Shown: positions 11,255 through 63,905, numbered from the stretch's first letter. The stretch is DNA of 64,000 bases from an uncultured Chloroflexia bacterium (GCA_963739515.1 CAVUAO010000003.1:748170-812169), one strand, 5' to 3'. Notes: generated by a model from the letters alone, not told the origin. Translations and numbers: made by a program.

Positions 11255-11281
11255 TTTTCTTCTCCTTAAAATTAATCAGGT

Positions 11282-13686: not shown

Positions 13687-13697
13687 ACCCCCCTTTC

Positions 13698-14963: not shown

Positions 14964-15007
14964 CTTCGCTCCCTCCTGACGAGTATTTAGTAACTAAATG
15001 CCGGTAA

Positions 15008-16474: not shown

Positions 16475-16705
16475 CGTTGCCCCCTTTCGCGGGATGGATA
16501 GTCCTATCTTAAAAGACACACCTGTATTCGGACTCAGGTTATATGAAAACGAGGGTATTCCGTCAACCCCGAGATTTTATCTTACCAGATACTAATCTAC
16601 CGGTAAGTACCCTGTCAAATAGTGATAAGACGGTCGGTTTGACTTATGAAGGCGTAAAGTGCTATACAGGAATAGCGTCCTTGCGTATCATTTTGGAGGA
16701 AAAAC

Positions 16706-20741: not shown

Positions 20742-20749
20742 ATAACCTC

Positions 20750-20850
20750 CCGGGTTAATACTACAAATACTACCAATAAGTACCAATACTACCAATAATC
20801 TAAATATTGAAATATTTGCAGTATTGGACATTTGTAGTATTGGTAGTATT
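20750..20850. promoter_or_regulatory. array of TACCAATA / TATTGGTA repeats flanking an AT-rich core
   Basis: Perfect TACCAATA at 20771, 20781 and 20790. Perfect inverted TATTGGTA at 20838. Imperfect copies at 20763 and 20822. Core is aaatattgaaatattt. Lies between the CoA-transferase stop and the SDR start. Confidence 0.45.
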
Positions 20851-20854
20851 TTAC

Positions 20855-22069: not shown

Positions 22070-22094
22070 AGCAGAACCTCCTGGTTTTTGGAGT

Positions 22095-44528: not shown

Positions 44529-45032
44529 TTAAGGTAAAAACGGCGGTCGGTAGTCCATCCCAAGTAGGTCGCGCGCGGTATCACGCAGCTTCATCAAAGT
44601 AGACTCCAATCGTTTCTTTTCTTCGAATGATAATTTTTCGAATATCAGGTGTATAGAACGTTCAGTGACCTTTTTATGATATAACTCAATACCTTTTTCC
44701 GTTAAAGTAATATATGTCTTGAGGTCGCCCAAGTTTTTGGTCTTTTTAATCAACCCCTTTTTCTCCATACGGTTAACCAGGGTTGATACCGAATTAAACA
44801 CCTTTAATGTCCAGTTTGCCAGTTCTTCAATTGTTACTGGCCTGTTTTCTCTTGAAAGCATCGCCAATATTCTAGCCTGCGGTTGGGTCATATGGAGATG
44901 CTTTAGCTCAAGTTCCACGGTGTTGGTAATGATGCTATCAGCTTGGTCGAGTAGGATATAAAGGTTGATATCCGGGTCATTCTTTTTCGACGTTCTTATG
45001 TTTTCAATATCATTTTGGTTTTTTTTCATCAT
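44529..45032 (-). CDS. MarR-family transcriptional regulator
   Basis: 167 aa. Winged-helix region LTQPQARILAMLSRENRPVTIEELANWTLKVFNSVSTLVNRMEKKGLIKK. Confidence 0.85.
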   Translation of the reverse strand: MMKKNQNDIENIRTSKKNDPDINLYILLDQADSIITNTVELELKHLHMTQPQARILAMLSRENRPVTIEELANWTLKVFNSVSTLVNRMEKKGLIKKTKNLGDLKTYITLTEKGIELYHKKVTERSIHLIFEKLSFEEKKRLESTLMKLRDTARDLLGMDYRPPFLP

Positions 45033-45175: not shown

Positions 45176-46869
45176 TTAAGCGGGTTTAATCTTATACTTA
45201 CCTACCGGGACCGGTTGTGTCGTAAGTTTCATCTTGCCATTATCCTGTTTTATGATTATCCACTTAAGCCAATTCTTATCGTCAGGTGCCGGAAAATCTT
45301 CGCGGAAATGGAACCCCCGACTTTCCTCTCTCATTAAGGCTGCCCTGTATGTTAACTCGGCGCATAAAACCATGCTCTTAACTTCATGGCATTTACTGAG
45401 GTAATGGGGATCCTTTGCCTTTAAACCTGATATTTTCTCCTTTAAATCATCAAGCCTTACCAAAGCTTCATTCAAGCGTTCTTTACTTCGGCGAAGATTA
45501 TACTTCATTGGAGCCATAACATCTTGTAATACCAATATTGCATCCCCCGGTAAGAAATTCTTGCCTTTATGTAGTGGGGCGAAAATATTATCTTTCAAAG
45601 TCTTTATTTCGGTATAACTAATACCACTGAAAGACGAATCTTCAATATCACGGGAAGCTGAAGGGCCAGCCCACCCTGCACTAATAACCGCAAACATGAT
45701 CCCCGATCCGGTGTTATACCGGGAGGTGAAGCCACAGCTCCAGCCACTGCTGAACCTGCATAACTGGTATCGCCAATAGCCCATAATCCCTTAAGGCTGG
45801 TCTTCATTTCATGGTCTACTTTAATACATGAGGTTTCACCATGTAACGGCACGCCTATCTCCCGCCTGACATTCGGCGGAAACCCGTATTTTATTTCTTT
45901 TTCAGCCATGTGCCGTTGCCAGTCATTCAATTTGGGTAAGTCAGTATGCACTACATACGGGGGATTTGAAGGCGGTGGGGCAAAATATATTGGCCCTCTC
46001 CCCTCGGCAACTTCTTTTTCTAAACCAACGGCTAATTCCACAGGCAAAAACACACCCGTTGGGCCTTCACCGGGCAAATATTTCTTAGATAAATTTTCAC
46101 CGAGCGCATTAACAAGGAATTGATGGCCTACCATACCACTATCTGTATCCTGCCATACAGTATGACCGTAGAGATTGCCATATTCGACATTTCTCATCTC
46201 TGCCCCGGCACGATAAGCTGCGGCAATTCCATCGCCGGTACCGGCAATCCAGAACCTTCTCACTTTATAACCGCAACTGCCATTTGCTAATACAGTTGCT
46301 TTAGCTCTAAAGATGTAAAATTTGCCGGTAATAATATCAAAACCGACTGCGCCAATGACTTTATTTGATTTTGTTAATAAATCAACAACATGTATTTTAT
46401 TTAAGAACTTTGTACCCATTTTACGGGCTTTACTCTTGATAGGTAGCATCAAATCAATATCAATATAGGTCGTTGACCACTCAGGAGCCCAGAATGCGGG
46501 AGTGATGATTAGCTGGCCGTCCGGGGTCTTAGCCAGGTTTGAGCCCCACTCATCAAATTCCTCAATTGCTTTATACGAACGCGCGACATATTTAGCAAGT
46601 AACTCCTGGTCGTTTAAATAGAACCCGGATGTACGTACCTGAAAGTCCATAAACTTGTCCGGGTTATTCCCAGGCCCCAGAAATGCCAGAATCCCGCCGA
46701 TTTTGGTTGCTTTGCCCGCCCAGCCAGCGGTCTGTTTTTCAACGACTAAAACATCAGCGTCTGGGTTTTTTTCTTTTGCTTTCACGGCTGTGACCAGACC
46801 GCCGATACCGCCGCCGATAATCAATACATCGGAAGAAATCACTTCACCTAAATCTTCTGTATTAGCCAT
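45176..46869 (-). pseudogene. FAD-dependent oxidoreductase (fumarate-reductase/AprA-like flavoprotein) with one frameshift
   Basis: ORFs 45604..46869 (VLIIGGGIGGLVTAVKA) and 45176..45784 (LMREESRGFHFREDFP). The frames join as ...ASPPGITPGSGIMFAVISAGW... if one nt is added near 45706-45712. Confidence 0.75.
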
Positions 46870-46918
46870 ATTAGGACCTCCTTCATTCCGGTTAGCTCCT
46901 GACTTTAATACAAAATAA

Positions 46919-47158
46919 TTAGTATGATGAGCGTAAGGGCGCAGGGATATTGGGAATTACTTCAATGCATTGAGCTGTGCATCCAGCTTCACAGGCCAGG
47001 CACCAGACACAGTCTTCAGGGTAGGCAACAACCGGTTTCTTATCGGCATCATTCCAGCGGATGACGTCTGCAAAGCAGGCATTCATACACGTTTTACAAC
47101 CTTTGCAGTTATTAAAATCAATCTTTATCTCTTTTACCCATGTTTTAGGTATATTCAT
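46919..47158 (-). CDS. 4Fe-4S ferredoxin-type small subunit
   Basis: 79 aa. CKGCKTCMNAC and CVWCLACEAGC clusters. AGAGGTG SD present. Confidence 0.8.
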   Translation of the reverse strand: MNIPKTWVKEIKIDFNNCKGCKTCMNACFADVIRWNDADKKPVVAYPEDCVWCLACEAGCTAQCIEVIPNIPAPLRSSY

Positions 47159-47168
47159 TATTCACCTC

Positions 47169-47828
47169 TTATTTAACGTAAATAATCTTGGAACCCTGTT
47201 TTATTATTTTCAGGGAAGCTTGGCGGTTAATGGTCGGGTCTGAGACCGCCTGCCATATTCCCCAGAGCGTCGGCAGGAAAGCTTTGAATGTGCTCACTTC
47301 AGCAATGTTATGGGTGCGCCAGCCGCCTCCTGTCGGTTTCTTCCCGCTGGGGTGCGGCGGCATCAGACCGGCTGGTGCGCCTCCGGGAGGTCCTCCCGGG
47401 ATACCATGCATGCAGGAACGCATCTTGCATCCGCCGGGGATTGGTTCCCACTGGTGAGAAAGCACGACATGGGATTTATTTCCGGACTGGGGGTCGGTTG
47501 GCCCTGCGGCGGTAAGAAGGTGTTCATATGTCCAGAACTTTTTTTGTTCCTCCGTCCCCAGATTAGGATCGACCCATTCGATACGAATAGGCATGACCGG
47601 GCCATAATCGATACTTTCGGTGGCAATCTGGACGGCTCCGATATGCCCACCCAAAGGCGGCTTAATCTTCCATCTAAAACCCTTGTGCTCGTCGGGACAC
47701 CATAACTCATAGCCTTTTTCCATGTTGACCCACCACCAATCGAGCATTTCGGCGGTCACTCCGGGAATTACATGGTCGACAACTATCCATGCTGCCGGAA
47801 ACTTTTCTTCTTGCATCTTAGATATCAT
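47169..47828 (-). CDS. PhlG / phloretin-hydrolase-like C-C bond hydrolase (DAPG-hydrolase domain), short form
   Basis: 219 aa. PGVTAEMLDWWWVNM...LWCPDEH matches my recollection of PhlG/Phy (MPGVTxEMFDWWFAWH...IWDPEDH). C-terminal HNIAE matches the HxxxE Zn-ligand pair. ATG 47816 is an alternative start. Confidence 0.5.
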   Translation of the reverse strand: MISKMQEEKFPAAWIVVDHVIPGVTAEMLDWWWVNMEKGYELWCPDEHKGFRWKIKPPLGGHIGAVQIATESIDYGPVMPIRIEWVDPNLGTEEQKKFWTYEHLLTAAGPTDPQSGNKSHVVLSHQWEPIPGGCKMRSCMHGIPGGPPGGAPAGLMPPHPSGKKPTGGGWRTHNIAEVSTFKAFLPTLWGIWQAVSDPTINRQASLKIIKQGSKIIYVK

Positions 47829-48501: not shown

Positions 48502-49143
48502 ATGAGGATGACTATGAAACAAATAGAGGCTGAAATTAACAGTCTCAAGAAACAGGTTGCAGCCGGGCAACGCGCTAAGGACGAACTCGATATTTGCAAA
48601 GTGCAGTCGCTCTACTCACACCACTACCAAGTCGGGAAGCGAGCTGAAGTGTCAACGCTTTTCGCGCAGCATACACCTGGAGTGACATTAGAAATCGAGG
48701 ACAGTGGCATTTACGAAGGTATTGAGAGTATTACCCGATTTTGGAACACGGTTTTCGGTGGCAATAAGCCTTTCCCACCGGGATGGATGGCTGTCCACAT
48801 GACCTGCAACCCGGTCATTGAATTCAACAAAGACAGTACCCAGGCAAAAGGCGTCTGGCACTCGCATGGTTTCTGTACGATTGGTCGTATCCCGTTCATC
48901 TGCTCCGGTAAATATGACATGGAGTACGTCAAAGAAGATGGTGAGTGGAGAATATTCACCTTTATTTACCGGCAGATTTTCATGTCGCCCTACCATCAAG
49001 GCTGGGTAGAGGCACCTTCTGTGGGTAGCATCGCAGCAAATCCACAAAATAAACCGGATAGAGCTTCTTCTTTTCATGCACCTTACACCCCCGGCGAGAT
49101 CTATTATCCTCAGCCCCCAGCGCCACAGCCTTACAATGATTAA
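48502..49143 (+). CDS. NTF2-like (SnoaL_4-type) protein
   Basis: 213 aa. Has an N-terminal helix, then a cone-like pattern (ICKVQSLYSHHY...GKYDMEYVKEDGEWRI). GGAG lies 8 nt upstream. Confidence 0.5.
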   Translation: MRMTMKQIEAEINSLKKQVAAGQRAKDELDICKVQSLYSHHYQVGKRAEVSTLFAQHTPGVTLEIEDSGIYEGIESITRFWNTVFGGNKPFPPGWMAVHMTCNPVIEFNKDSTQAKGVWHSHGFCTIGRIPFICSGKYDMEYVKEDGEWRIFTFIYRQIFMSPYHQGWVEAPSVGSIAANPQNKPDRASSFHAPYTPGEIYYPQPPAPQPYND

Positions 49144-49328
49144 CTACGAGAGGCATGATTGGCAGTACTCAAACAACGTATTCAAAAAATAATAAGGCAA
49201 AACACAGCTTTAGGAAACTACCAGAACTGATAAAACGGCATCAGATCAAACCTCTGAAAAAGAGAAATAAACGCTTATAATAGGCTAGACACAGAAATAA
49301 ACCAGGTAAGCCAGTTAATGATATATCG

Positions 49329-49349
49329 TGTTTCAGGTGGAGTTCGACT
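49329..49349 (+). repeat. 21-nt direct repeat, upstream copy
   Basis: tgtttcaggtggagttcgact. Matches 50273-50293 with 1 mismatch. Flanking bases are also partly similar (gccagttaatg / gccaatcaagc). Confidence 0.8.
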
Positions 49350-49405
49350 ATCATGGGAGAAATAATTGAAGAAAAAGAATATTCGTGAAAATACGGAGGG
49401 ATTCC

Positions 49406-50137
49406 ATGGAAAAAGTAGCCTTGGTTACCGGCTCGACACATAACATGGGCAAGGCAATCGCCGAAACTTTATCCCGGGACGGGTACCTGGTTATCATAAC
49501 TTCGCGGCATGAAGAGGAAGCCAGAGCGGTGGCGGAGGATCTACCGAAGAAGGGCATTTATTATAAGGTCGACTTTTCCGACGCAAAGCAAATAGAGGGG
49601 CTTTTCTCGTTTATAAAAAAGAAATTCGCACGGCTCGATGTGCTCGTTAATAGCCTCGCATACACGAAAAATGAGTCCATTCTGGACTGCACGCTGGAAA
49701 TTTGGGAGAAGACCATCAACACCAACCTTAGGAGCTATTTCCTATGTACCAAGTATGCGGCGGAGATGATGAAAGAGCTGGGGGGAGGTAATATTGTAAA
49801 TATTACTATATCCGGCAAGCGTGGGACGAAGGACAAGTTTTCCTACGTGGTAAGCAAGGGAGGAGTTGGGTTTCTTACCATGAGCGCCGCTCTCGACCTG
49901 GCGCCATTCAATATCCGCGTCAACTCAGTAGGTTCCGGTCTGGTAGGTACACCGGTAGGGACCAAGGAATTTCCAGAGAGAAATAACCGACCATACGAAA
50001 TCCCTGGCATACCGGCGGGGCACATCGGCGAACCTCAGGATATTGCCAATGCCGTGTCATTCCTACTATCCGATAAAGCCAAATACATTTACGGTGCGAT
50101 GCTATCCGTAGACGGTGGTATGAATTCCTCGCTGTAA
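49406..50137 (+). CDS. SDR-family oxidoreductase
   Basis: Start at ATG 49406 (MEKVALVTGSTHNMGKAIA) with GGAGGG 5 nt upstream. Has a YVVSK catalytic motif. Confidence 0.85.
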   Translation: MEKVALVTGSTHNMGKAIAETLSRDGYLVIITSRHEEEARAVAEDLPKKGIYYKVDFSDAKQIEGLFSFIKKKFARLDVLVNSLAYTKNESILDCTLEIWEKTINTNLRSYFLCTKYAAEMMKELGGGNIVNITISGKRGTKDKFSYVVSKGGVGFLTMSAALDLAPFNIRVNSVGSGLVGTPVGTKEFPERNNRPYEIPGIPAGHIGEPQDIANAVSFLLSDKAKYIYGAMLSVDGGMNSSL

Positions 50138-50453: not shown

Positions 50454-51314
50454 CTAAGCCCAATGTTTATCTCCAACGGGGAATCGGCAATGTGGGACTG
50501 AACAATCACTACAGTTAGACAGACGCAACGAAGGCAGTTTGGCTCCCTTCGATTGTTCAATAAATTCTATTGCGTCTCTAACTTGTCCGCTAGTTCCCTT
50601 TATGATTAGTGTCGTTGCTCCCTCTGCACCACCTAAACCGCCAGAGGCTATAGGTACAGCAGTGGCACGGCTCAATATTTTAACAGCTTCTATTTCAGTT
50701 ATTGTTTTTCCATCCGGATAAGGAAATAGTCCGGCAGGTAACCCCATACCGTATTCGTACTTAGCTTGCTTCGCCTCCATCGCCGCCTGGCGTACCGGAA
50801 TAGGTATCAATTTCTCTAGCCCTGCCGGGAAGACCAATGTGAACTTCTTTTTCTTCCATGCCGATAGTATTACGCCCAGACCTCCACGTTCGCCAACTAA
50901 AATGCCCACATTGCCTTGGGGGTCCAGCGCGTTTACCCCTTTTATGTACACATCCTTAGCTGTCATCTGCTCCATTAATTCAGCAGTAGTGTTTTCGGTT
51001 AACACCTTTCCATTCTTTATAGCCCACAAACCCCGGAGCTCTCCTGGATCATATTTCATACTTGGAGGAGAATACCCTCCAAGCACCATTGCCATCTCGA
51101 CACACATTCCTCTTGGAGTAACCACACCGCAAACCCAATGGTTGGTCTTCGGTTTTGCTCCAACTAGTTCCTCGAAAACAAAGTAAGTACTGCTGCTCGG
51201 ATGCATCACAACCATACCCTCCGTGGCAGCCTGTCTCACCACATCTAGTTTGGCAATCGCTTTAGCAATCAATTTTTTGGACTCCGTAGGTGTTAAGACA
51301 ACTTGGGCTAACAT
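50454..51314 (-). CDS. uncharacterised protein (paralogue pair, C-terminal Cys/His motif)
   Basis: 286 aa. Shares TESKKLIAKAI, MHPSSST, YIKGVNALDP, PAGLEKLIPIP and a C-terminal CSDCSVPHC...KHW with its neighbour. Confidence 0.5.
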   Translation of the reverse strand: MLAQVVLTPTESKKLIAKAIAKLDVVRQAATEGMVVMHPSSSTYFVFEELVGAKPKTNHWVCGVVTPRGMCVEMAMVLGGYSPPSMKYDPGELRGLWAIKNGKVLTENTTAELMEQMTAKDVYIKGVNALDPQGNVGILVGERGGLGVILSAWKKKKFTLVFPAGLEKLIPIPVRQAAMEAKQAKYEYGMGLPAGLFPYPDGKTITEIEAVKILSRATAVPIASGGLGGAEGATTLIIKGTSGQVRDAIEFIEQSKGAKLPSLRLSNCSDCSVPHCRFPVGDKHWA

Positions 51315-51348: not shown

Positions 51349-52236
51349 TCATTTGTTTTTCAACCAGTGCTTATTTCCACCATACAAGGAACAATGCTGA
51401 TCGTTACATTTGGTACAGTCAGTCTGGCGGAACCGGCGAGAAATTTTAGCGCCTTTAACATCTTCAACATAGGTGATGGCTTTCTTAACTTGATTATCTT
51501 CACCGGAGATTATTAGCGTGATTGCTCCTTCTGCCCCATCTACCCCACCAGCACTGATAGGAATAGCTGTTGCTCCGGTCAGGAATTCAATCGCTTTAAG
51601 CTCGGTAACTACTTTCCCTTCGCATTGTAGAAGCGAACACCGTGCACCCATGGAATAAGACAAGGTCAGTCTGTGTTTGGCTGCTTCAACTGCTTCTTCA
51701 ATTGGTATAGGTATCAATTTTTCCAACCCGACCGGATAAATAATGGTAAATCCCTTTTCCCTTTGGGTACCTATAACCCGACCGATGGTTCCTCCTTCAA
51801 CATCATTACCAATAAGCACGCCTACTTTACCCCGCGGATCGATAGCATTCACACCCTTTACATAGACATCTTTCGGTCCCATCCGTGTGAAAAGACTTAA
51901 AAGGGTTTCGCCTTGGCTCAATTTCTCTTTCTCAATAACCCAGGAGAAAGGAAACGCCTCTGGGCCACCTTTTCCTATAGCCTCGGGATCTGTCGTCATC
52001 CAGACCTTGACCGCATCATCACCGCAAGCCGCCCTGGGCGTAATTGCACCGCACATCCAGACATCGGTTCTTGGGGTTTTCCCTAGGATTTCTTCCGCCA
52101 GGAATAGAGTACTGCTACTGGGGTGCATCACCAGTATTCCTTCTTTAAGAGCTGTCTTAACTTCATACATATTAACCAGCGCTTTAGCAATTAATTTTTT
52201 AGATTCATTGGGTATAAGCGATACCTGAGCGCGCAT
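51349..52236 (-). CDS. uncharacterised protein (paralogue pair, C-terminal Cys/His motif)
   Basis: 295 aa. Has NESKKLIAKAL, MHPSSST, YVKGVNAIDP, PVGLEKLIPIP and a C-terminal CTKCNDQHC...KHW. Confidence 0.5.
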   Translation of the reverse strand: MRAQVSLIPNESKKLIAKALVNMYEVKTALKEGILVMHPSSSTLFLAEEILGKTPRTDVWMCGAITPRAACGDDAVKVWMTTDPEAIGKGGPEAFPFSWVIEKEKLSQGETLLSLFTRMGPKDVYVKGVNAIDPRGKVGVLIGNDVEGGTIGRVIGTQREKGFTIIYPVGLEKLIPIPIEEAVEAAKHRLTLSYSMGARCSLLQCEGKVVTELKAIEFLTGATAIPISAGGVDGAEGAITLIISGEDNQVKKAITYVEDVKGAKISRRFRQTDCTKCNDQHCSLYGGNKHWLKNK

Positions 52237-53104: not shown

Positions 53105-53794
53105 ATGAATAATGTTAATCAATATGATTGTCTTTTAAACCTAGTTAAAAAAAGACGCACGATACGCCAGTTTAGGTCTGATCCGGTGCCTGACGAATAC
53201 ATTACCAAGATCATCGAAGTGGCGCGCTGGGCTCCATCGGCTTTTCATACGCAACCCTGGGAATTTGTTATCATCAAGAACCAACATATAAAAAACAAAA
53301 TAGTAGCCGCACTCGAACAACATGGGCCACCCATAAAAGACCCACTCAAGGAGTCCTTGCCCAGAAAGAGCTTCAAGGATGCGCCTGTCTTTATATTACT
53401 ATTATGCGATTGGAGAGCCAGTATTGGGCTGCCTGGTCGCACCCCTGAAAACAAAGCGCAGGTAGCCAATCTTTATTGCTCCAGCTTGGCTAATGCCTTT
53501 TTATATATGCACCTGGCGGCCACTGCACTGGGACTGGCATCACAATGGTATACCGCCACGTCTCGTCCGGAAGCCGAGCGTTCCATAAAAGAGATAATCG
53601 GCATTCCTGAAGTCCTAACAATTTATGACATGATGGTAGTTGGTTACGCCGCTAATCCACCTGATCCCAAAATCGTCAGAGATATCGATGAAATAGCGCA
53701 TTACGATAATTGTGGCGAGCAAGATTTCAGGACCGATGAGGAAGTGACAAATTATGCTAAGAAAACCAAAGCCTGGTGCATGTCACAGCATTGA
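53105..53794 (+). CDS. nitroreductase-family protein
   Basis: 229 aa. KRRTIRQFRSDPVP, ARWAPSAFHTQPWEFVII. AAGGAG SD present. Confidence 0.85.
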   Translation: MNNVNQYDCLLNLVKKRRTIRQFRSDPVPDEYITKIIEVARWAPSAFHTQPWEFVIIKNQHIKNKIVAALEQHGPPIKDPLKESLPRKSFKDAPVFILLLCDWRASIGLPGRTPENKAQVANLYCSSLANAFLYMHLAATALGLASQWYTATSRPEAERSIKEIIGIPEVLTIYDMMVVGYAANPPDPKIVRDIDEIAHYDNCGEQDFRTDEEVTNYAKKTKAWCMSQH

Positions 53795-54706: not shown

Positions 54707-55507
54707 TTAACCTGGAATTCGCCTAGATTTTGCCAGCCAGGACTCAAGATAACCGTATGCCGACCAGCCCCCGTCTACAACAATAGTTTGCCCTTCCATG
54801 TATTTGGATTCCTCCGAGGCGAGAAAGACAACCGCATCGGCGATTTCAACAGGCTCGGCCAACCTGCCCAACGGCGTTCTATTGGCCAGTTCCGAAACAT
54901 CGAGCACTCCTTTACTTGCCAGGTCTTCAACCAGGTAGGTGTTAACGTAGCCGGGGGCAACCGCGTTAACGTTGATTTTATACCTGGCCCATTCGCAGCC
55001 CAGAACTTTCGTTAGTTGCATCAGTCCTGCCTTGGCACAGCTGTAGCTTACCCGCTCCGGGAAGGCGCCGATGCCGTTAACTGAGGCTATATTGATGATT
55101 TTGCCACCTTTTTGCTTGATCATCTCCCGGCCGGCCGCCTGGCTGCAGAGGAAAGGGCCGGTCAACATTACATCGATGCCGCGCCTCCAACCATTTTCCT
55201 CCAGTTCCTCGGACGGTCCCAGCACAGACATCCCGGCATTATTTACCAGTATGTTGATTTTGCCGAACTCCCCTTTGACCCTTTTTACCATCGCATCGAC
55301 TTCTGATTTATTGGCTACATCGGCCCTGATAGTTATCGCCGGTTGTCCAAGTTCCTGTATTTCCTTCACCACTTCCTCGGCTGCCTCCACCGACTTCGAA
55401 TAGTTTATCGCGACAACAGCCCCCTCCCTGCCAAGGCCAGCGCAATAGCCCTGCCGATACCGCGACTGCCTCCGGTGACCAGCGATACTTTGTCCTTCAA
55501 TCTCATT
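54707..55507 (-). pseudogene. SDR-family oxidoreductase (FabG-like) with one frameshift
   Basis: Own translation from ATG 55507 (GGAGG SD) gives MRLKDKVSLVTGGSRGIGRAIALAL, then a stop. The track ORF continues REGAVVAINY...NNAG...YSCAK. The frames join if one nt is added near 55428-55434. Confidence 0.8.
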
Positions 55508-55541
55508 TGCCGCCTCCGCTTTAATTAAAACGTTCCCGAAT

Positions 55542-56762
55542 TTATGGAATAACGCCTTTTTCCTTAAAGTGTTCCATGTCCTCCCAGGAATAGCCATATT
55601 CCAGCAGCACTTCCTCGGTATGTTCCCCGATCTGTGGGGCTACGTGCGTGATTTTAGCGGGTGTATCGCTGAACTGGACGGGGCTGTTCAACAGCCGCGC
55701 TTTCCCTACCAAAGGATGCTCGATGTCCGTGAAGAAATTATTTACGATAGCTTGCTCATCCCTTAGGATTTCCGGTATTGTCTGGTTGCCGCTGACTATC
55801 AGGTCGTTTGCCTTGAATTCCTTCTCCCATTCCGGCCAGGTACGGGTAACGAAGAGTTTATCCAGTTCCTTAATCATCGCTTCGGCGTTTTGCTCGCGGC
55901 TTTCCATAGTAGCATAGCGCACGTCATTTATCCATTCCAGCTTGCCGATTGCTTTGCAGAATGGCTCCCAGTAGTCCTGGTTGGGATGGACCATCATCAT
56001 CCATTTGCCGTCTTTGGCTTTATAGGAGTTGTACATCGGGTTCGGGTTACACCTTCGGTCCCATATCTTTGGCGGGTACCCGTACAGGCAGACCTGCGTA
56101 TCCAGGCCCAGTGTCCATGTCGCTACGTGGTACAGGGATACTTCCAGCCCCTGCCCCTTGCCCGTCTTTTGTTTGTGGTATAAAGCCGCCAGTATCCCGC
56201 TGGTAATATGGGCGGATGTTACCATGTCCATCATGCCCGGGCGCTGTATAGCAGGGGGACTCGTCGGGTCTGCTGTTACCAGGCTCATCAGCCCGCCGTA
56301 CGACCAGGCCGCGATATAATCGTAACCCCGGTCTCTCGCTTTCGGGCCTTTTGTACCGAACCCGGTAAGCAGGCAGTGTACCAGCCCCGGGTACCTGTCC
56401 TTCAGGCTGGCATAGTCCAGCCCGAAACGCTCCAGTACGTCGATGGAGTAGTTGGTGGCAAAAACGTCGGCGTCCTTGAGGAGCCGGTGAATTATTGCCC
56501 TGCCCTCTTCTGTCCGTAGGTTTATGGCCACGCTTCTCTTGCTGCGGTTTAAGAATTCGAAGTGAAGCTCGATTTGTCCTTTATCCAGATTGAGCAGAAG
56601 CGGCGTCCTATTAAAGCTGACCAGGCTTCTCTGCCAGTCCCCCCATATCGGCTCGATCTTGATGACATCGGCGCCCCAGTCCGCCATAACGGCTGTAGCC
56701 GCCGGCACGCCGACAACTTGCTCAAACCCGATAATTTTTAATCCATCTAGTAGTCCAGCCAT
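55542..56762 (-). CDS. family III (CaiB/BaiF) CoA-transferase
   Basis: 406 aa. LDGLKIIGFEQVVGVPAATAVMADWGADVIKIE. Confidence 0.85.
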   Translation of the reverse strand: MAGLLDGLKIIGFEQVVGVPAATAVMADWGADVIKIEPIWGDWQRSLVSFNRTPLLLNLDKGQIELHFEFLNRSKRSVAINLRTEEGRAIIHRLLKDADVFATNYSIDVLERFGLDYASLKDRYPGLVHCLLTGFGTKGPKARDRGYDYIAAWSYGGLMSLVTADPTSPPAIQRPGMMDMVTSAHITSGILAALYHKQKTGKGQGLEVSLYHVATWTLGLDTQVCLYGYPPKIWDRRCNPNPMYNSYKAKDGKWMMMVHPNQDYWEPFCKAIGKLEWINDVRYATMESREQNAEAMIKELDKLFVTRTWPEWEKEFKANDLIVSGNQTIPEILRDEQAIVNNFFTDIEHPLVGKARLLNSPVQFSDTPAKITHVAPQIGEHTEEVLLEYGYSWEDMEHFKEKGVIP

Positions 56763-56927
56763 ATTTTTTCATTCCTTTAGAATAATCTCTCGGGGATACC
56801 CATATTGACAGACGGGCATCCAGAAATCTCTGAAAAGCAGACAAGCGAACGGATTCATCAATCTATTCTCACATTTTTGCGAGCATGTTAAGGGACTCTA
56901 TTTCAAGCCCGAGGGAAACCCGAAACA

Positions 56928-56981
56928 AGAGCCGCTATCTGCTGATGACAAATCGGCTGTCCTGCCGGATATAGCGGCTCT
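56928..56981 (-). terminator. long-loop hairpin downstream of cupin gene (possible terminator)
   Basis: Perfect 11-bp arms agagccgctat (56928-56938) and atagcggctct (56971-56981). On the minus strand it is followed by tgtttcgggttt. Confidence 0.4.
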
Positions 56982-57030
56982 TTATCACGGTGCGATGAGT
57001 CGTTCCCGGGCTGCCCCAGGCAGGTCCGCT

Positions 57031-57372
57031 TTAGTCGTAACTTATAGCTACCAGCATGGTTACTGGTTTATTGGTTTTATTGATAATTTCCCTTCCCTCG
57101 TTAGGAGCCAGGAAAAGCAGGTCCATGGGTTTCAGGGTAAATTCATCCTTCTTGGTCTTAACGGTGAGTTCTCCGTCCAGTACGACGTATACTTTTTCCG
57201 TAGGTGAGTCTTCGTAAGCATATTTTGCCCCGCCGCCGGGCAGGAAATAGGAAAGCCCCACCCAGAACTTTTTAGCGCCCGTTTCATCCTTGCCGCTCAG
57301 CCTGAGGGCAGTCACATCGAAGTGGCCCGGCGCGGCATACGGTTTAACCTGGTTCAGACTAATTTTTTTCAT
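57031..57372 (-). CDS. cupin-domain protein
   Basis: 113 aa. Single small beta-barrel pattern (VYVVLDGELTV...LLFLAPNEGREIIN). Confidence 0.65.
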   Translation of the reverse strand: MKKISLNQVKPYAAPGHFDVTALRLSGKDETGAKKFWVGLSYFLPGGGAKYAYEDSPTEKVYVVLDGELTVKTKKDEFTLKPMDLLFLAPNEGREIINKTNKPVTMLVAISYD

Positions 57373-57418
57373 AGCTCCCCCTATATATTACGAATCATAA
57401 CTAATATTGATAGTTATT

Positions 57419-58225
57419 TTATTGTGTGCCGTACTTGTAGACCCGGTCTGGGACACGGTTGATATTTTCTTCATCAATGAAGGCGACCATGCGGACGATA
57501 GAGCCGTCGCCCATATACCAGCGAATAGGAAAGCCGGATATCTTACACCGCTTGCCCACAACTTTGGCGATATCGCCGCCGACATTCTCCCAGCCTAGGA
57601 GGCCGTTTCTCATAAGCAGGTTATGGCACGGCTCCCATTCCGGGAAATCTTGGAGCACATCGTGACCTGTCAGCTGCTTGTACTCTTCGCAAACATCTTT
57701 TCTCAGGGGTCCCGGGCCATGAGGGCCGATGGCGGTATGCAGCGGGTGGTCCAGTGCCTGCTGGTCCACGCCGACAGCTTTAGCTTTGTGGGAAACGAAC
57801 CATTCCCCGGCCTCTTTGCCCAGGCCGGGTGAGTAGCAGAAATAGGTGGTGTTATCGCCCCAGTATTTATTCCAGCCGGTATGGACAATAATGATATCGC
57901 CGGCTTTCATCGGCAGCTTCTTGTTGGCGGCGTCGAGGTCCTTGGCGGTAATAAGTTCCCATTTCTTCTTGGGAATATCCCAGACGACGGCATCGCCATA
58001 ATAGCAGGTCAGGGGAATTTCATGGGTAAAACGTCCTCCCTCGAAGACATGGGCCGGCGAATCGGCATGAGTTGTACAATGCATTACGGTGGTTACCGTC
58101 TGAGAAAGCACGCCGGATTTAGCCATATAATGCATTCTCTCAATCTTAACATCCGCAAAATACGGCCAGAGCGGTGAACCGTTACCGAATGGATGGCTTA
58201 AATCAACCAGTATTTCTTTTCCCAT
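57419..58225 (-). CDS. cyclase-family (kynurenine-formamidase-like) metal hydrolase
   Basis: 268 aa. Motif HCTTHADSPAH equals HxGTHxDxPxH with G replaced by T. Confidence 0.8.
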   Translation of the reverse strand: MGKEILVDLSHPFGNGSPLWPYFADVKIERMHYMAKSGVLSQTVTTVMHCTTHADSPAHVFEGGRFTHEIPLTCYYGDAVVWDIPKKKWELITAKDLDAANKKLPMKAGDIIIVHTGWNKYWGDNTTYFCYSPGLGKEAGEWFVSHKAKAVGVDQQALDHPLHTAIGPHGPGPLRKDVCEEYKQLTGHDVLQDFPEWEPCHNLLMRNGLLGWENVGGDIAKVVGKRCKISGFPIRWYMGDGSIVRMVAFIDEENINRVPDRVYKYGTQ

Positions 58226-58264
58226 AATGGATACCTCCTTGAATTATTACTATCAAGTATTGTA

Positions 58265-59035
58265 TTAGCAGGTAGTCACGCCGCCGTCGATATAGAGTAT
58301 TTGTCCGGTGATAAAATTGGAAGCTGCTGACGCAAAAAATATGGTAGCCCCGACGATGTCCTCCGGTAGAGCCCAGCGGCCCATGGGGATGCGGCTCTTC
58401 ATATACTTGGCATAATCCGGATTAAGCAAAGCCTCAGGAGTCAGTGTCAAAGGGGTCTCCACAATAGTGGGGGCCACCGCATTTACCAGCACGTTATGTT
58501 TCGCCCACTCGCAGGCGAGCGTACGCGTCAGGGTGTCCACCGCTCCCTTGCTGGCACAGTAGGCGGCATAGTTAGCTGGCAGGCCATATCTGCCCCGCAC
58601 CGACGAAAGGTTGATAATCCGGCCGCTTTTTTGCTTAATCATGACCCGGCCCACTGCCTGGCAACACAGGAACGTCCCGCGGGTATTGATATCCATCACC
58701 TGTTGCCATTCGTCAATGGGGAAAGTTTCGGCAGGTTTGCGAATAGATATCCCATGAGCATTTACCAGGATATCGATGTGAGAAAATTTTTTCATGACGG
58801 TGTCTACCATGGCTGCCACGGATTTTTCTTGAGAGACATCAACGGCGACCGCCAGGGACTTCCTCCCTTTGCCCTGTATTTCTTTAACTACCGGCTCGAG
58901 GTGCTCCAATTTCCGACTGGTTATAATAACATCCGCGCCAGCATCGGCTAAACCCAGAGCTTGAGCATGTCCAATGCCACCCCCGCCACCGGCCACGACC
59001 GCCACTTTACCCGTAAGATCAAATAAATTAGTCAT
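58265..59035 (-). CDS. SDR-family oxidoreductase (candidate phloroglucinol-reductase-like)
   Basis: 256 aa. Has VAGGGGGIG, an NAHG variant and YCASK. The substrate is inferred only from gene context. Confidence 0.8.
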   Translation of the reverse strand: MTNLFDLTGKVAVVAGGGGGIGHAQALGLADAGADVIITSRKLEHLEPVVKEIQGKGRKSLAVAVDVSQEKSVAAMVDTVMKKFSHIDILVNAHGISIRKPAETFPIDEWQQVMDINTRGTFLCCQAVGRVMIKQKSGRIINLSSVRGRYGLPANYAAYCASKGAVDTLTRTLACEWAKHNVLVNAVAPTIVETPLTLTPEALLNPDYAKYMKSRIPMGRWALPEDIVGATIFFASAASNFITGQILYIDGGVTTC

Positions 59036-59072
59036 TTTAGTTATCCCCCTTAAACTCTAAACGCGCAACTAT

Positions 59073-59909
59073 TTAAGCCTTCGCCAAAAATATATCGCCA
59101 AGGTATTTGTCGGTTTTCAGATCAACACTGACTGCCTTTGGGTTATAGCCGGTAAATTCCAGGTTTAACTTGTATTTCCCGGCGTCAAGACCATCGAATT
59201 CAAAATCGCCGTAGTTGTTGGTCGTTGTCTTGAAAGACTTTCCATCGACCGTCAGAGTTGCTTTGACCCCATCGGCGCATTCATCTGTGTCCCCGAATAC
59301 CACCGTGCCGGCGATGAAGCTCCTGGTTATTTTGTAAAGGTCGATATAGTATACGCTGGGGCCGGTGTTCCATTCAGGGTGGAAAACCTCGGCCCTGGAT
59401 GATTTTAACAGTTTGGATGCCTCACTCTTCGGGTCGTCCAGATCGCCGAAAGTCAAAGCTCCGGTCGGGCAGGCCTGAACACACCGGGGAATCCCGCCTT
59501 CTTCCAGCCGGTGGACACAGAAGGTGCATTTCTGGGGGAGCTTCTTGTCTTCATTCCAGTAGATCACCCCGTAAGGACAGGACTTAACTACCTGGGACTG
59601 CCCGACGGCCTTCTGCGGGTCGATGACCACGATACCGTCAGGTCTCTGATAGAGAGCACCGTTCTTGGCTGCCTTAATGCACGGCGCATCCTCGCACTGC
59701 ATACAGGGCAAAGGCATATAGGCAACTTTGATAAAGGGATGTTTACCGCGTTCGTTCTTGGGAAGATTCATCCAGAACTGCCCGTGCCTCGGCTGGGCGG
59801 CAGTGTAGGGAGGATAATCGTTATCCCAGTATTCGTCTTTACAGGCAATAAAACAGCAATAGCAGGCATTGCATTTTGATATATCGACTACTAAACCCCA
59901 CTTAGTCAT
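59073..59909 (-). CDS. 4Fe-4S subunit of a DMSO-reductase-family enzyme, pyrogallol-phloroglucinol transhydroxylase small-subunit (BthL)-like
   Basis: Start preferred at ATG 59909 (MTKWGLVVDISKCNACYCC), where GGAGGA lies within the codons of the alternative ATG 59924. Has Cys clusters and a C-terminal beta-sandwich-like tail (YGDFEFDGLDAGKYKLNLEF). Both resemble my recollection of Pelobacter BthL. Confidence 0.8.
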   Translation of the reverse strand: MTKWGLVVDISKCNACYCCFIACKDEYWDNDYPPYTAAQPRHGQFWMNLPKNERGKHPFIKVAYMPLPCMQCEDAPCIKAAKNGALYQRPDGIVVIDPQKAVGQSQVVKSCPYGVIYWNEDKKLPQKCTFCVHRLEEGGIPRCVQACPTGALTFGDLDDPKSEASKLLKSSRAEVFHPEWNTGPSVYYIDLYKITRSFIAGTVVFGDTDECADGVKATLTVDGKSFKTTTNNYGDFEFDGLDAGKYKLNLEFTGYNPKAVSVDLKTDKYLGDIFLAKA

Positions 59910-59928
59910 ATTTTTATCCTCCATTACT

Positions 59929-62526
59929 CTACTTCCATTTTTCTATTTCGACCAGGCATGAGTTTGGAGCCATGCCGCAGGCATTTTTGGAAATGAAGCG
60001 ATGATTGGTCAGCAGGTTAATGCATCCGCCCTTATCCGGCTGATTCACCGGGCTTGCCGATAGGCTCATAGATGGCGCAGGACTCATAGGAATGAACGAC
60101 TCCCGGCGGCACGCGTCCGGTGACCTGGGCGGCCAGTAACACTTCACCCCGGTCATTAAAGGCTTTGACGATGTCGCCTTCTTTAATACCCCTCTTTTTG
60201 GCGTCGTCCGGGTTGATACGGATCACCCAGTAATAATACCCGTCCGCCATCTTGACCCTGTGTTCCGGTATCTCGTTCACCCAACATTCCTTGCCATCAT
60301 ACATGGTATGGAAGCTGTAAGCTGGGATGGGGTGAAATTAGTTGCAGCGGATATTTTGTATACAAGCTCCGTGGTATGATGCCCTTCCCATGAAGGGATA
60401 TATTTGGTGACGGGCGGTCTCTCCTTGATCGTTGGGGTCAAAGCGCTTGAGACTCTGCGATTCAAATTCAATTTTGCCCGATCTGGGTATCGACGTGACC
60501 TACGGCATCAGGCAAGTCCCTGGGTAGCGCCGCCGACAGGGCCCCAGTCGATGTCATCCTTTTTCCTGTTTTCGGCAAACCATCTGAGGGCCGGGGTTGG
60601 TTTATAGTTTTTCGGCAGCGGTACGACGAAGTAGCCCTTCTTCTCGAATTCTTCCCAGGAAATATATTTCGGCAGGTCGCTGGCTTGAACACGCTCTTTA
60701 CCCAGTCCAGTTCGTTCAGTGCCGCCTTCGGTGAATTTCTCGTAGAACCCGAGTCTCTTGGCGACCATGGCGAATATCTCATAGTCAGACTTGGACTCAC
60801 CGAGCGGCTCGATGCATTTCTTCTGGAAGACGATCATCCGGCGGTTGCACCCGTAAGACGAATGGGGGATATAGCCTGAGCAGTTGGCCCACTCGCCGAT
60901 GTCCCACCTCTCGAAGTTGGAGCAGGCGGGCAGTATCAGGTCGGCGAATTTAGCTTCACCTTCCAGGTAAATAGACTGGTTGACGACAAATTCCAGCTTG
61001 GGGCTCTGGTACATCTTAACCCAGCGGTTGGTATTGTTCATGGTGCCGATATAGGCCCCGCCATAACGCCAGAACATCTTCAGATCTGAGAATACCCGTC
61101 TTCAGGGTATTTATATTTCTTGAACTGGGTCTCGGTGGAATCGCCGCAGAAGCCCTTGCCCCGCCATTCCTGGGGTGGGTCCATGATGCATTCCGGCACC
61201 AGGATCCTGGGTATATGCTGCCCGCCGGGATTGTTCAACGTTGAACTCGTCGGGTGGGCGGTGATGCCGCGAGGTATCAACTGGTAAGCGGCAGCAGTGT
61301 TGGCAGGATCGCCGGATATACCGCCTTCAGCGTATCCCGGGAAAAAGAAATCGCCATTGTAGGGGGCGCCGCCGGTGGTCGACCAGATGTTGCTGCCCGG
61401 TTTGCCCAACCCCTGCATGGCGGCCAGCAGCACCATCATCCTCGCCCATTCCGTGCCGTAGGCGGTGCGGCAGGCGCCTCCCCACCCTCCGAGCCCCCCG
61501 GCTGCCAGCATGGTCTTCTTTTTGCCCCATTCCCTGGCCAGGGCTCTAATTTCACGGGCCGGTATCCGCGATTCCTTCTCGCGCCCATTCCGGAGTCTTG
61601 GGAATGCCGTCATCCTTGCCCAAAATATAATCGCACCATTTATCAAAGCCATAGGTATGCGTCTTGACATATTCTTTATCGTAGAGGTTTTCGGTTAGCC
61701 AGACATAAGCGATAGCAGCGGCGAAAGCCGTATCGGTACCCGGCCTGGGAGCGAACCATTTATCGGAGTAGTTGATGGCGGTGAAGTTGAAGAAGGGGTC
61801 GATAAAGACCATTTTAATTCCCAGTTCTTTCAGCCAGAAACGCCTTATCGCCGATTCCTGTCCGGCGTAGATGCCGCTGGTGGTTGAAGGGTCGCTCGAC
61901 CAGTAGACGATCATCTCGGTGTGTTTCAGCGCATCATCCAGGAGGTCGTACTGTCCGGGTATGCCGAGCCTCCAGGAAAAACCCCAGTTATGCATGGCGC
62001 CCCAGTGCCAGCCTTCCCAGCTGTCCGGGTTATGGTCGGCATAGGTGTAGCCCAGGATATTCATAAACCTGAAATAGGTACTGTGACGATAACCGACATT
62101 GCCCCAGTTGTGGTGAGAATCCGTCGTGCTCAACATTGCGCCGGGACCGTAAGTTGTACGTACTCGAATTATTTCATCACAGAGGATATCCAGGGCTTTT
62201 TCCCAACTTATCTCCTTGTAGCCCGATTTGCCCCTGTTCGCCTGCTTCCTGTCTCCCTTGAGACTGAAGTCTTCTCTTAAAAGGGGATGAAGAATACGGC
62301 TGGTGCCATATATCCTCGACCTTTCCGCCAGGGCGTATGAGGAGACCCTCGCCCTGTTTTCCGGAGAGAATTTCTTGCCGCGCGCCTCGATGACCCAGGT
62401 TGCGTCATCTTTGTCGAGTTCCAGTGGCTCGATGCGTGTTATCCTCCCCTCCTTCACATAAACATTGACCGGCCCTCCTGTAGTGCAGCTGGTAAGGACC
62501 TGCTCGTATTTTTTCGTATTTATCAT
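59929..62526 (-). pseudogene. molybdopterin subunit, pyrogallol-phloroglucinol transhydroxylase large-subunit (AthL)-like, about eight frame disruptions
   Basis: Pieces are 61552..62526, 61080..61670, 60508..61077, 60468..60800 (tail), 60277..60471, 60032..60304 and 59929..60156. Diagnostic strings include HHNWGNVGYRHSTYFRFMNILGYTYADHNPDSWEGWHWG, AAGGLGGWGGACR, LPACSNFERWDI and GGCINLLT...LVEIEKW. No Tat signal. Own retranslation places the shifts near 61580, 61081, 60515, 60478, 60420, 60355, 60320 and 60037. Confidence 0.85.
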
Positions 62527-62822
62527 ATTTTATTACCTCCCGCTTCGTTTTCGATTGGCCATGATTGCGTCAGGATTCTTGATAATGACGCATCAAGAGC
62601 TATTGCATGTTGCCATCATCCTTTACTTACAGGTCTCATTCACTTTTCGAGTTTTTTTGTTCCGATGCCGGGCTGGATCCGGAAAGGCAAAATGTCAAGT
62701 TCATTTTATTGCCTGAAACATACCATATCGTCTATCGCTGATCAATCTGAGTAGACCGGCCAAATTTTTCCTGAAACTCGCCGGACTTAAAACCGTTATT
62801 AAAAATCCTTTATCTCGTTAAA

Positions 62823-63905
62823 CTACAGTTTAAAACCTGGTGGCAATGGCGTGAAACGCATATCGCCAAAGTCATATTTCGGCGTCATGGCGATAACTAC
62901 CATCAGGAAAGGCCTGTCAACCCTCTTGAAATAATGTGGATTATGTGCCAGGCCCGCCGGCACCCACTCAGCCGTCGCTTTGGTGGTGACGAATTTCTCT
63001 GCCTCGTTTCCCTCACCCAGCCAGAACTCGACTTCTCCGCCTAGATTCAGCGTGTCGTGCGGGTCAAGCCCGACGAAAAGGAAAAGTTCATCGAAGTTGT
63101 GCGCATGGCCACCTCCTTCGGTGCCCTCTGCCGCACCACCCTTGAGGATAGTTGGCTCCAGGGAGGGGAGTCCTATTCCGGTTCCCGCGGCATATACATG
63201 GAAAATTTCAACCCAGATGGTAGCGTCAGGATAAGTGGTCTTATCGAACATCAGTGTCGGTACGGCTACCATGCCGCGTTGATAAGGAAATAAACGGTCC
63301 GTGGCAAATTTCACTTCATTAACATATTTCGTGTATAGCCCTTTACCCTTTTGCTCCTGCCCCACTTTTTCAAAGGAAAAGGCCGGCGGAAGCGGAATCG
63401 AGCGAGAAGCGCCGGGATCGAGGCTGTACGTAGGTGTCATGGCAATAGCCATTTCAATGATAGGTCTATCGCGGCTAGCGACCTTGGTAAAATAATGCGG
63501 ATTATGTGCCACGTTCCGCGGGACCCATTCGGCCGTCGGTGTTTTAGCGATAAATTTCTGCGCATCTTTTCCTTCGCCCAGCCAGAACTCGACCTCACCC
63601 CCTAGAGATAAGACATCATGCGGATTACTCCCGAAAAACAAAAAGAGTTCGTCGAAGTCGGGGTGCGCGTGCTGTCCGCCGTCGCCCGGCATCTCTCTAC
63701 CTTCGATTATCATCGGCAATTCGCCAGGGATCATAACTCCGGACCCTGGCGCGTAGATATGGAACGTTTCGACCCAGATTTTGGCCCCCGGGAAGACTTT
63801 TTGGTCGAAAATCAGCGAAAAATCCGCAATCTTGCCCCGGTAGGCTGGGCGTATCAACTCCGTCCATAGCCTTAAGTCGTGAACATATTTTGTATATTTT
63901 CCCAT
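62823..63905 (-). CDS. bicupin protein (internally duplicated cupin), unknown function
   Basis: 360 aa. The halves share HAHP(N)FDELFLF.G..PHD.L.LGGEVEFWLGEG...TAEWVP...AHNPHYF. AAGGAGGG SD present. Confidence 0.6.
   Translation of the reverse strand: MGKYTKYVHDLRLWTELIRPAYRGKIADFSLIFDQKVFPGAKIWVETFHIYAPGSGVMIPGELPMIIEGREMPGDGGQHAHPDFDELFLFFGSNPHDVLSLGGEVEFWLGEGKDAQKFIAKTPTAEWVPRNVAHNPHYFTKVASRDRPIIEMAIAMTPTYSLDPGASRSIPLPPAFSFEKVGQEQKGKGLYTKYVNEVKFATDRLFPYQRGMVAVPTLMFDKTTYPDATIWVEIFHVYAAGTGIGLPSLEPTILKGGAAEGTEGGGHAHNFDELFLFVGLDPHDTLNLGGEVEFWLGEGNEAEKFVTTKATAEWVPAGLAHNPHYFKRVDRPFLMVVIAMTPKYDFGDMRFTPLPPGFKL

Follow-up and report, generated by a model that had tools for sequence, protein, structure and literature searches.

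A 64,000-nucleotide stretch of DNA from an uncultured Chloroflexia bacterium (GCA_963739515.1, CAVUAO010000003.1:748170-812169), referred to as a whole as the window, was analyzed for a string of minus-strand genes between positions 54707 and 63905. An earlier note, written from the sequence, had proposed that this string encodes an anaerobic trihydroxybenzene pathway running from pyrogallol through phloroglucinol to ring opening. Comparative genomics (synteny, homology, and residue conservation) supported that proposal, and the string is probably the operon by which a Dehalococcoidia-type anaerobe would catabolize trihydroxybenzenes via phloroglucinol. What is given below on gene content, homology, conserved residues, synteny, and selection was observed directly; related loci used for comparison are designated by L numbers.

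Read in the direction of transcription, the string encodes a bicupin (62823-63905, a 360-aa open reading frame, ORF), an AthL-like MopB large subunit (alpha, 59929-62526), a BthL-like Fe-S small subunit (beta, 59073-59924), a first short-chain dehydrogenase/reductase (SDR1, 58265-59035), a compact cyclase-family hydrolase of 268 aa (cyc268, 57419-58225), and a small cupin of 113 aa (57031-57372). These are followed by a hairpin (56927-56938 and 56971-56982), a family III CoA-transferase (CoAT, 55542-56762), and a second SDR (SDR2, 54707-55506). All nine elements had been listed in this order in the earlier note and all nine were present, with two amendments: alpha was not a single ORF, and the true start of SDR2 was found at 55506, not at 55597. 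The six other genes of the operon were intact when compared with their orthologues.

Domain assignments were obtained for alpha on fragments (PF21423 AhtL-like_1st, PF00384 Molybdopterin, and PF01568), for SDR1 (adh_short_C2, E 1.7e-63), for the cyclase (PF04199), for the small cupin (Cupin_2), and for CoAT over its full length (CoA_transf_3, E 1.9e-100, profile positions 1-366). An equivalog-level NCBIfam match was obtained for none of the operon genes. The nearest relatives of every operon gene were found in Dehalococcoidia metagenome-assembled genomes (MAGs); the named matches of the bicupin and the small cupin were labelled Dehalococcoidia or Dehalococcoidales, and the N-terminal fragment of alpha was 74-77% identical in L001, L002, L003, and L009.

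Predicted pathway and the enzymes that would carry it

The cytoplasmic Mo/Fe-S enzyme formed by alpha and beta, which would represent a Dehalococcoidia sister lineage of the Pelobacter acidigallici transhydroxylase, would convert pyrogallol, or a closely related polyhydroxybenzene, to phloroglucinol. SDR1 would then reduce phloroglucinol to dihydrophloroglucinol, and the compact cyclase would open the ring to give 3-hydroxy-5-oxohexanoate. CoAT and SDR2, replacing the TfD dehydrogenase and BKACE lyase of the known route, would convert this acid to 3,5-dioxohexanoyl-CoA, either by CoA activation followed by oxidation or in the reverse order, and a thiolase encoded elsewhere would release acetoacetyl-CoA and acetyl-CoA. 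Every substrate and reaction in this scheme is predicted from sequence comparison, and so is the relative timing of CoA transfer and oxidation.

Alpha and beta had been likened in the earlier note to AthL and BthL, the transhydroxylase subunits of Pelobacter acidigallici (PDB 4V4C/4V4D/4V4E), and these proved to be the best solved relatives by a wide margin. The first 324 aa of alpha matched 4v4c_A with an E of 4.5e-125, and frame-corrected alpha (see below) aligned to residues 7-867 of AthL with 1148 bits and 59% identity over 845 positions, versus 248 bits for the next solved protein, dimethyl sulfoxide reductase. Beta, which was intact relative to L083, matched 4v4c_B over residues 8-262 (E 2.6e-66). 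As in AthL/BthL, the enzyme has two subunits, an AhtL-like first domain, and no twin-arginine translocation signal; the N-terminus of alpha reads MINTKKYEQV, with no RR motif and no N-terminal Fe-S motif. Beta likewise shares the ferredoxin-type clusters (Fer4_11, residues 66-161) and the C-terminal beta-sandwich (CarboxypepD_reg-like tail, residues 204-273). AthL residues H144, Y152, R153, D174, S175, W176, W354, Y404, and Y560 were all identical in the window alpha. We take these to form the Mo, pyrogallol, and cosubstrate site, with S175 presumably the Ser ligand of Mo; their roles were reportedly described by Messerschmidt in 2004. Conversion of pyrogallol to phloroglucinol by AthL/BthL depends on 1,2,3,5-tetrahydroxybenzene.

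The Gly-rich NAD(P) motif (GGGGGIG) and the YxxxK catalytic motif (YCASK) of classical SDRs are visible in SDR1, whose best solved relatives were gluconate-5-dehydrogenase-like enzymes. Orthologues of SDR1 (77-96% identity) preceded the cyclase in every Dehalococcoidia operon, and homologues at 47-52% preceded it in Actinomycetota and Desulfobacterales clusters that carry canonical dihydrophloroglucinol cyclohydrolase (DPGC) and TfD, most of them with a BKACE-like gene. This slot directly before DPGC or the cyclase was found in the window, in L002, L003, L007, L009, and L122, and in ~20 metagenome loci. SDR1 belongs to a different SDR lineage from the clostridial type, and its candidate assignment as phloroglucinol reductase rests on its position in the operon.

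The cyclase contains the motif HCTTHADSPAH reported in the earlier note, beginning at residue 49, and the affinity to DPGC expected there held up. It was compared with the characterized Mn-dependent CsDPGC, the sequence and marked ligands of which are printed in the supplement to Zhou et al. 2023 (PMC10470551). Identity was 51%, and W20, P21, H49, H53, D55, H201, and E213 of the window cyclase matched the flagged metal and substrate residues; a PDB sequence search returned weak kynurenine-formamidase matches only. The window protein is ~45 residues shorter than canonical DPGC (268 vs 312 aa) and falls outside the canonical DPGC clade, which shows 80-89% identity across phyla (80-84% between the C. 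scatologenes enzyme and the Dehalococcoidia, Actinomycetota, and Sporobacter copies).

Both types of cyclase occupied the same place in otherwise near-identical operons. The SDR, cupin, TfD, and TAL of L002 and L003 were 93-97% identical, and the cyclase slot held canonical DPGC in L002 and the compact cyclase in L003. L122 has the operon of the window (SDR1 92% identical) with canonical DPGC in the cyclase slot. Among the metagenome loci, this slot was occupied 18 times by the compact type and six times by the canonical type. That one cassette replaces the other in a fixed position speaks for a shared function, which would make the compact cyclase a candidate DPGC.

Downstream of the cupin, CoAT was always followed by SDR2. 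The nearest structures to CoAT were YfdW/formyl-CoA transferase and SUGCT; benzylsuccinate CoA-transferase ranked lower among the matches, and no NCBIfam equivalog reached its cutoff. The best PDB matches of frame-corrected SDR2 were 3-oxoacyl-ACP reductases and BbsD. CoAT is a candidate 3-hydroxy-5-oxohexanoate (or triacetate) CoA-transferase and SDR2, which is FabG/BbsD-like, a candidate 3-hydroxyacyl(-CoA) dehydrogenase; paired, they would follow the logic of a beta-oxidation-type module.

The arrangement [SDR1]-cyclase-cupin-CoAT-SDR2 was found in ~25 metagenome loci, 10 of which were preceded by alpha-beta and six (four distinct sequences) by a divergent gene of the DAPG/phloretin-hydrolase family together with a flavoprotein gene. 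L009 and L122 also continued with CoAT and SDR2 after the cupin. In L002, L003, and L007, the cupin was instead followed by a 3-hydroxyacyl-CoA-dehydrogenase-family gene (3HCDH) and a BKACE gene, which correspond to TfD and TAL; in L002 and L007 the set of SDR1 (83% and 79%), canonical DPGC (80% to CsDPGC), cupin, 3HCDH, and BKACE adjoined alpha-beta. The CoAT-SDR2 and TfD-TAL pairs thus held the same position after SDR-cyclase-cupin and were never found together in one locus. No tblastn match to TfD (3HCDH) or TAL (BKACE) was obtained in the 64-kb window, and neither gene was found in any CoAT-type locus. The suggestion in the earlier note that a CoA-transferase route is used here in place of a BKACE-type lyase fits this synteny.

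The window itself carries a hydrolase-flavoprotein pair at 45.2-47.8 kb on the minus strand. It consists of a DAPG/phloretin-hydrolase-family gene (47169-47828, Pfam PF18089) and an FAD flavoprotein gene (45176-46869, FAD_binding_2 and Succ_DH_flav_C) that is split into two overlapping ORFs by a frame break at ~45708. A pair of this kind adjoins SDR1-cyclase-cupin-CoAT-SDR2 in L097, L099-L102, and L109. These hydrolase-fed loci would provide a second, independent link between the module and phloroglucinol.

Alternative substrates, alternative acids, and broken frames

Several observations weigh against reading the string as a working pyrogallol-to-phloroglucinol operon. They concern the clade of alpha, the fate of the ring-opened acid, the frames of alpha as deposited, and the identity of SDR1 and the cyclase, and each is given here with the alternative to which it lends weight.

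In order to place alpha, a neighbor-joining (NJ) tree of 100 alpha sequences was built; a protein search with the alpha fragment gave only proteins of 243-560 aa, and full-length references were taken from genome loci. The AthL clade was tight (72-86% identity) and included sequences from Holophaga foetida, Sporobacter, Flavonifractor, Gaiellales, and Desulfofustis. The window alpha fell outside it, in a separate Dehalococcoidia/Bathyarchaeia clade at 59% identity to AthL, and therefore its substrate could differ. Forty-nine positions were fixed differently between the two clades, and several alpha paralogues per locus were present in related genomes (L002, L021, and L027). On these grounds, alpha and beta could belong to a paralogue clade whose substrate is hydroxyhydroquinone, a tetrahydroxybenzene, or some other phenol. 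The reaction would then be a transhydroxylation, such as those that Pelobacter massiliensis carries out in sequence, or a hydroxylation like that of resorcinol hydroxylase, and the downstream genes would still degrade phloroglucinol.

We consider a different substrate unlikely. None of the 49 positions lies within 4 residues of the site residues, and the presumed pyrogallol and cosubstrate residues were identical to those of AthL even where they change in other paralogue clades: R153 was present in 78 of the 100 alpha sequences, W354 in 59, Y404 in 89, and Y560 in 87, and all four were AthL-like throughout the window clade. Within Dehalococcoidia, the window clade is also the one physically joined to the phloroglucinol module, and the AthL clade holds the same position beside phloroglucinol genes in Clostridia and Actinomycetota loci. 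Pyrogallol-type transhydroxylation by alpha and beta is favored because the site residues are AthL-like and the clade is joined to the phloroglucinol module. The refuting conditions named in the earlier note thus mostly came out for its proposal: AthL is the best solved relative, and its characteristic residues are kept. The window alpha does not group with AthL orthologues, however, and is best classed as a member of the AthL family rather than as an AthL orthologue in the narrow sense.

AthL orthologues at 72-86% identity were observed across Acidobacteriota, Actinomycetota, Bacillota, and Desulfobacterota (L020, L019, L021, L026, L033-L037, L043, L045, and L046). This clade is very tight, as is that of canonical DPGC (80-89%), and the pathway may therefore have spread laterally.

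A second alternative concerns the acid on which CoAT and SDR2 act. No thiolase was found inside the operon or up to 10 kb away in any of the related loci; the search was made with a thiolase signature regular expression, a strict pattern, so this is a weak negative. In addition, the MAG CSMAG_2721 has an operon with TfD and TAL (L003) on one contig and CoAT-SDR2 (L005) on another, and therefore the two modules are not strictly alternatives at the genome level. Given also that CoAT has no equivalog-level match and that family III enzymes, judging from the names of its structural matches, often act on aryl or dicarboxylic acids, CoAT and SDR2 might serve phloretate or another aryl or hydroxy acid, with the ring-opened product passing to TfD and TAL encoded elsewhere. 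This seems rather improbable to us, for CoAT-SDR2 directly follows cyclase-cupin in ~25 loci, with alpha/beta and with PhlG as feeder alike, it is accompanied by neither an acyl-CoA dehydrogenase nor a hydratase of the kind needed in arylpropionate beta-oxidation, and no BKACE or 3HCDH gene was found in the 64-kb window. Activation of the ring-opened acid itself by CoAT is the reading retained here.

The reading frames of the deposited sequence were then considered. Alpha as deposited cannot be translated. Its breaks were mapped by frameshift-aware dynamic programming, in which the intact orthologues of L001 and L083 were aligned to the DNA, and consisted of ten single-base frame changes, eight with an extra base and two with a missing base (~61581, 61094, 60720, 60695/60683, 60516, 60482, 60424, 60372, 60320, and 60037). 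They are insertion-biased and lie outside homopolymers. In SDR2, a single missing base at ~55431, mapped with the orthologues of L009 and L083, throws the Rossmann motif out of frame. Frame-corrected alpha has 863 aa and zero in-frame stops, and is 90% identical to the intact 862-aa alpha of L083 and 80% identical to that of L001. L083 is a 136-kb metagenome contig, taken to be short-read assembled, on which the whole operon is uninterrupted. Selenocysteine was considered for an apparent in-frame stop at 61080 and ruled out, as three-frame translation shows a frameshift there.

A sister contig, L122 (ERZ25039512 contig_34116, 224 kb, presumably also long-read), carries the same operon with 13 frame breaks and one stop at other positions. 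With frames corrected in both copies, the ratio of nonsynonymous to synonymous substitution rates (dN/dS) between the window and L122 was 0.059 for alpha and 0.047-0.112 for the intact neighbors, at a dS of ~0.8. Breaks pile up in alpha in both copies: 10 of 12 in the ~11 kb of coding sequence checked in the window, and nine of 13 in positions 11300-18400 of L122. By our own arithmetic, the concentration in the window has a probability of ~2e-5 under uniformity.

These breaks, ten in alpha and one in SDR2, and above all their shared concentration in alpha, could be taken to mean that the cluster is a decaying remnant, with alpha a true pseudogene and the organism unable to use pyrogallol. Such decay is very unlikely. 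Alpha has no in-frame stops, its orthologue is intact at 90% identity in short-read assemblies, its dN/dS equals that of intact neighbors although both copies carry ~10 breaks at different sites, and the breaks of L122 are spread over alpha, beta, SDR1, the cyclase, and CoAT. Insertion bias is moreover atypical of bacterial gene decay. Because there are no stops, the L083 orthologue is intact, and purifying selection is undiminished despite ~10 breaks per copy, the ten alpha breaks and the SDR2 break were judged to be, most likely, errors of long-read assembly rather than gene decay. A protein 100% identical to the bicupin is recorded from a contig of 1.11 Mb, the size of which suggests a long-read assembly. 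The pile-up in alpha suggests a systematic consensus problem of a multi-paralogue gene, which could have arisen during consensus polishing with reads of alpha paralogues or of related strains. In long-read MAGs of this kind, where a key gene is shredded by indels, an automated annotation would report the pathway as missing or decayed.

A last group of counter-observations concerns SDR1 and the cyclase. The earlier note had looked to characterized phloroglucinol reductases for relatives of SDR1, and this expectation failed, the similarity being of a generic SDR kind. SDR1 was 34% identical to 5G4K, taken here, with support from its context, to be the phloroglucinol reductase that Conradt et al. 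reportedly described from Clostridium in 2016; this match ranked ~28 among the PDB SDR matches and was no closer than many unrelated SDRs. Identity to the clostridial cluster SDR was 32%; that SDR, from L019, a clostridial alpha-beta-cupin-SDR-TfD-DPGC-TAL locus, was 67% identical to 5G4K. The Actinomycetes locus L027 (7597-9682) has canonical DPGC and a compact cyclase (59% to that of the window) in tandem, followed by three alpha paralogues, and the co-occurrence of both cyclase types could mean different functions. Action of SDR1 and the cyclase on another cyclic 1,3-dione, as in a resorcinol/1,3-cyclohexanedione route, would suit an SDR without specific similarity to the clostridial type and a cyclase that is a diverged, shortened paralogue, but is highly improbable, given that canonical DPGC (80-84% to the characterized enzyme) sits in the same slot beside SDR1 orthologues (80-92%) and that both types of feeder gene are expected to yield phloroglucinol. 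Reduction of phloroglucinol and opening of dihydrophloroglucinol remain the favored roles of the pair.

Relation to known systems and the two cupins

The closest known system is the PGR-DPGC-TfD-TAL cluster of Clostridium scatologenes, defined by Zhou et al. 2023 (PMC10470551). In the window, as there, the reductase gene precedes that of a ring-opening hydrolase of the cyclase family with conserved DPGC ligands, and the Dehalococcoidia relatives L002, L003, and L007 carry the full four-gene set. The window differs in that CoAT and SDR2 are present and TfD and TAL absent, that the reductase is of another SDR lineage (34% to 5G4K) and the cyclase a compact paralogue (51% identical, ~45 residues shorter), and that a conserved small cupin is present, which is given no role in the text of that paper. 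The summary table of that paper (Data set S4 of PMC10470551) lists no Chloroflexi. Homologues of AthL/BthL in Chloroflexi have already been reported from metagenomes in 2013 and 2016 (PMC3971608, PMC4959651); relative to AthL/BthL itself, the window alpha differs in its 59% identity, its separate Dehalococcoidia clade, and its broken frames as deposited.

CoAT and SDR2 were also compared with the Bbs-type module (CoA-transferase BbsEF, SDR BbsCD, and thiolase BbsAB). The pairing of a family III CoA-transferase with a FabG/BbsD-like SDR is common to both. The similarity is distant, however; in the operon the transferase has a single subunit, and thiolase, hydratase, and acyl-CoA dehydrogenase are missing. 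A second CoA-transferase (36% identical) and SDR (34%) pair was observed elsewhere in the window (19803-23285, minus strand) together with an SCP-x-type thiolase, making up a complete Bbs-like module. In L009 (1885-2331 and 3712-4575) and in L090, L092, and L110, a RidA/L-PSP-family gene follows SDR1 and a 287-aa Cupin_2 protein precedes CoAT; both are absent from the window.

A CoA-dependent branch of phloroglucinol degradation was reportedly seen in cell extracts of Eubacterium oxidoreducens by Krumholz in 1987 and of P. acidigallici by Brune and Schink in 1992, and we know of no assignment of genes to it. The sequence of intermediates and steps in that branch, which is partly summarized in PMC10470551, namely hydroxy-oxo-hexanoate, dehydrogenase, CoA activation, and thiolysis, is the same as that predicted for the window, with the difference that the window operon has no thiolase. 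Tentatively, CoAT-SDR2, the non-clostridial reductase, and the compact cyclase may be the genes of this branch in subsurface Dehalococcoidia, and the bicupin a helper of the transhydroxylase, for example one that supplies pyrogallol or a tetrahydroxybenzene cosubstrate; we hold this combined proposal to be possible, at somewhat less than even chances.

A literature search found no description of the CoA-transferase form of the operon, of the compact cyclase, or of the non-clostridial reductase lineage. What appears to be new is the reductase lineage, the shortened cyclase, and the predicted substitution of CoAT and SDR2 for the dehydrogenase and lyase, and the operon is better described as a variant of a known pathway than as a new kind of system. 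Much plant carbon lies in tannins and flavonoids, the sources of such trihydroxybenzenes, and what becomes of them in the absence of oxygen matters for carbon storage in sediments and peat. The finding ties abundant subsurface Dehalococcoidia to polyphenol mineralization. This form of the operon is widespread in metagenomes, where searches modelled on the clostridial cluster would probably miss it. It further supplies candidate genes with which the old CoA-dependent branch could be tested, and draws attention to two conserved cupins.

Both cupins are proposed to be conserved accessory proteins, the bicupin with alpha/beta and the small cupin with the reductase/cyclase pair. The earlier note had already remarked that roles for them in this pathway would be new. 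No Pfam or NCBIfam match was obtained for the bicupin. An AlphaFold (AF2) model built with 42 homologues had a predicted local distance difference test (pLDDT) score of 93, and Foldseek returned generic bicupins only (oxalate decarboxylase, MncA, and quercetinase) at a template modelling score of ~0.5 and ~10% identity. Residues H79, H81, E86, and H134 were invariant in the 42 homologues. The bicupin gene immediately precedes alpha in at least seven loci (L001, L083, L085, L088, L114, L122, and L123), and is absent from PhlG-type loci and from some alpha-beta loci. Four single-cupin relatives lie upstream of the bicupin in L083. Two 300-aa bicupin paralogues (25-33% identity, no Pfam match) were observed in the window at 10352-12181, adjoining FAD_binding_4 oxidase-like and CCG-domain genes (12211-16519).

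In most of the Dehalococcoidia loci, the small cupin is the gene after the cyclase, and the same holds for several loci of Desulfobacterales, Actinomycetota, and Clostridia. It lacks the canonical His triad; Y12, H17, Y62, E92, and R94 are invariant. Its AF2 model was poor (pLDDT 66), and the nearest folds, TM1459-like cupins, indicated no function. Against NCBIfam NF050094, the family of a 113-aa M. tuberculosis cupin, it scored 82 bits (E 3.5e-23), under the cutoff of 175. The gene for that cupin, Rv1717, presumably lies within the DPGC cluster of M. tuberculosis. The Rv1717-type protein has been reported as a beta-galactosidase (PMC7873859). The window cupin resembles it in size and in its clear profile match, and differs in scoring under the family cutoff and in sitting in a phloroglucinol operon. 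Because the small cupin is constantly placed in phloroglucinol operons, the NF050094 name beta-D-galactosidase may not reflect its main role.

Signals and neighboring genes

Scans for Rfam families and tRNAs returned no matches, and the signals in a promoter/terminator scan were at or below shuffled expectation. The spacer between the small cupin and CoAT (56763-57030, 268 nt) folded with a z of -3.7 relative to shuffles. It holds the hairpin noted above, a perfect 12-bp inverted repeat with a 32-nt loop on the minus strand, which may act as an internal attenuator or processing site. A T-rich stretch was observed after this hairpin.

Together with the hydrolase-flavoprotein pair (45176-47828), further genes make up a polyphenol-type neighborhood around the operon (44529-45032, 42894-44231, 48502-50137, and 53105-53794); they encode a SnoaL_4 protein, another SDR, a nitroreductase, a MarR regulator, and a URO-D-family protein. 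Tandem paralogous ORFs of ~290 aa with Cys-rich C-termini and no Pfam family lie at 50454-51314 and 51349-52236. The G+C content of the window is ~0.55-0.61 over positions 1-38000 and ~0.40-0.55 over 38000-64000, and this drop near 38 kb could reflect either horizontal acquisition of a catabolic island or a join made in assembly.

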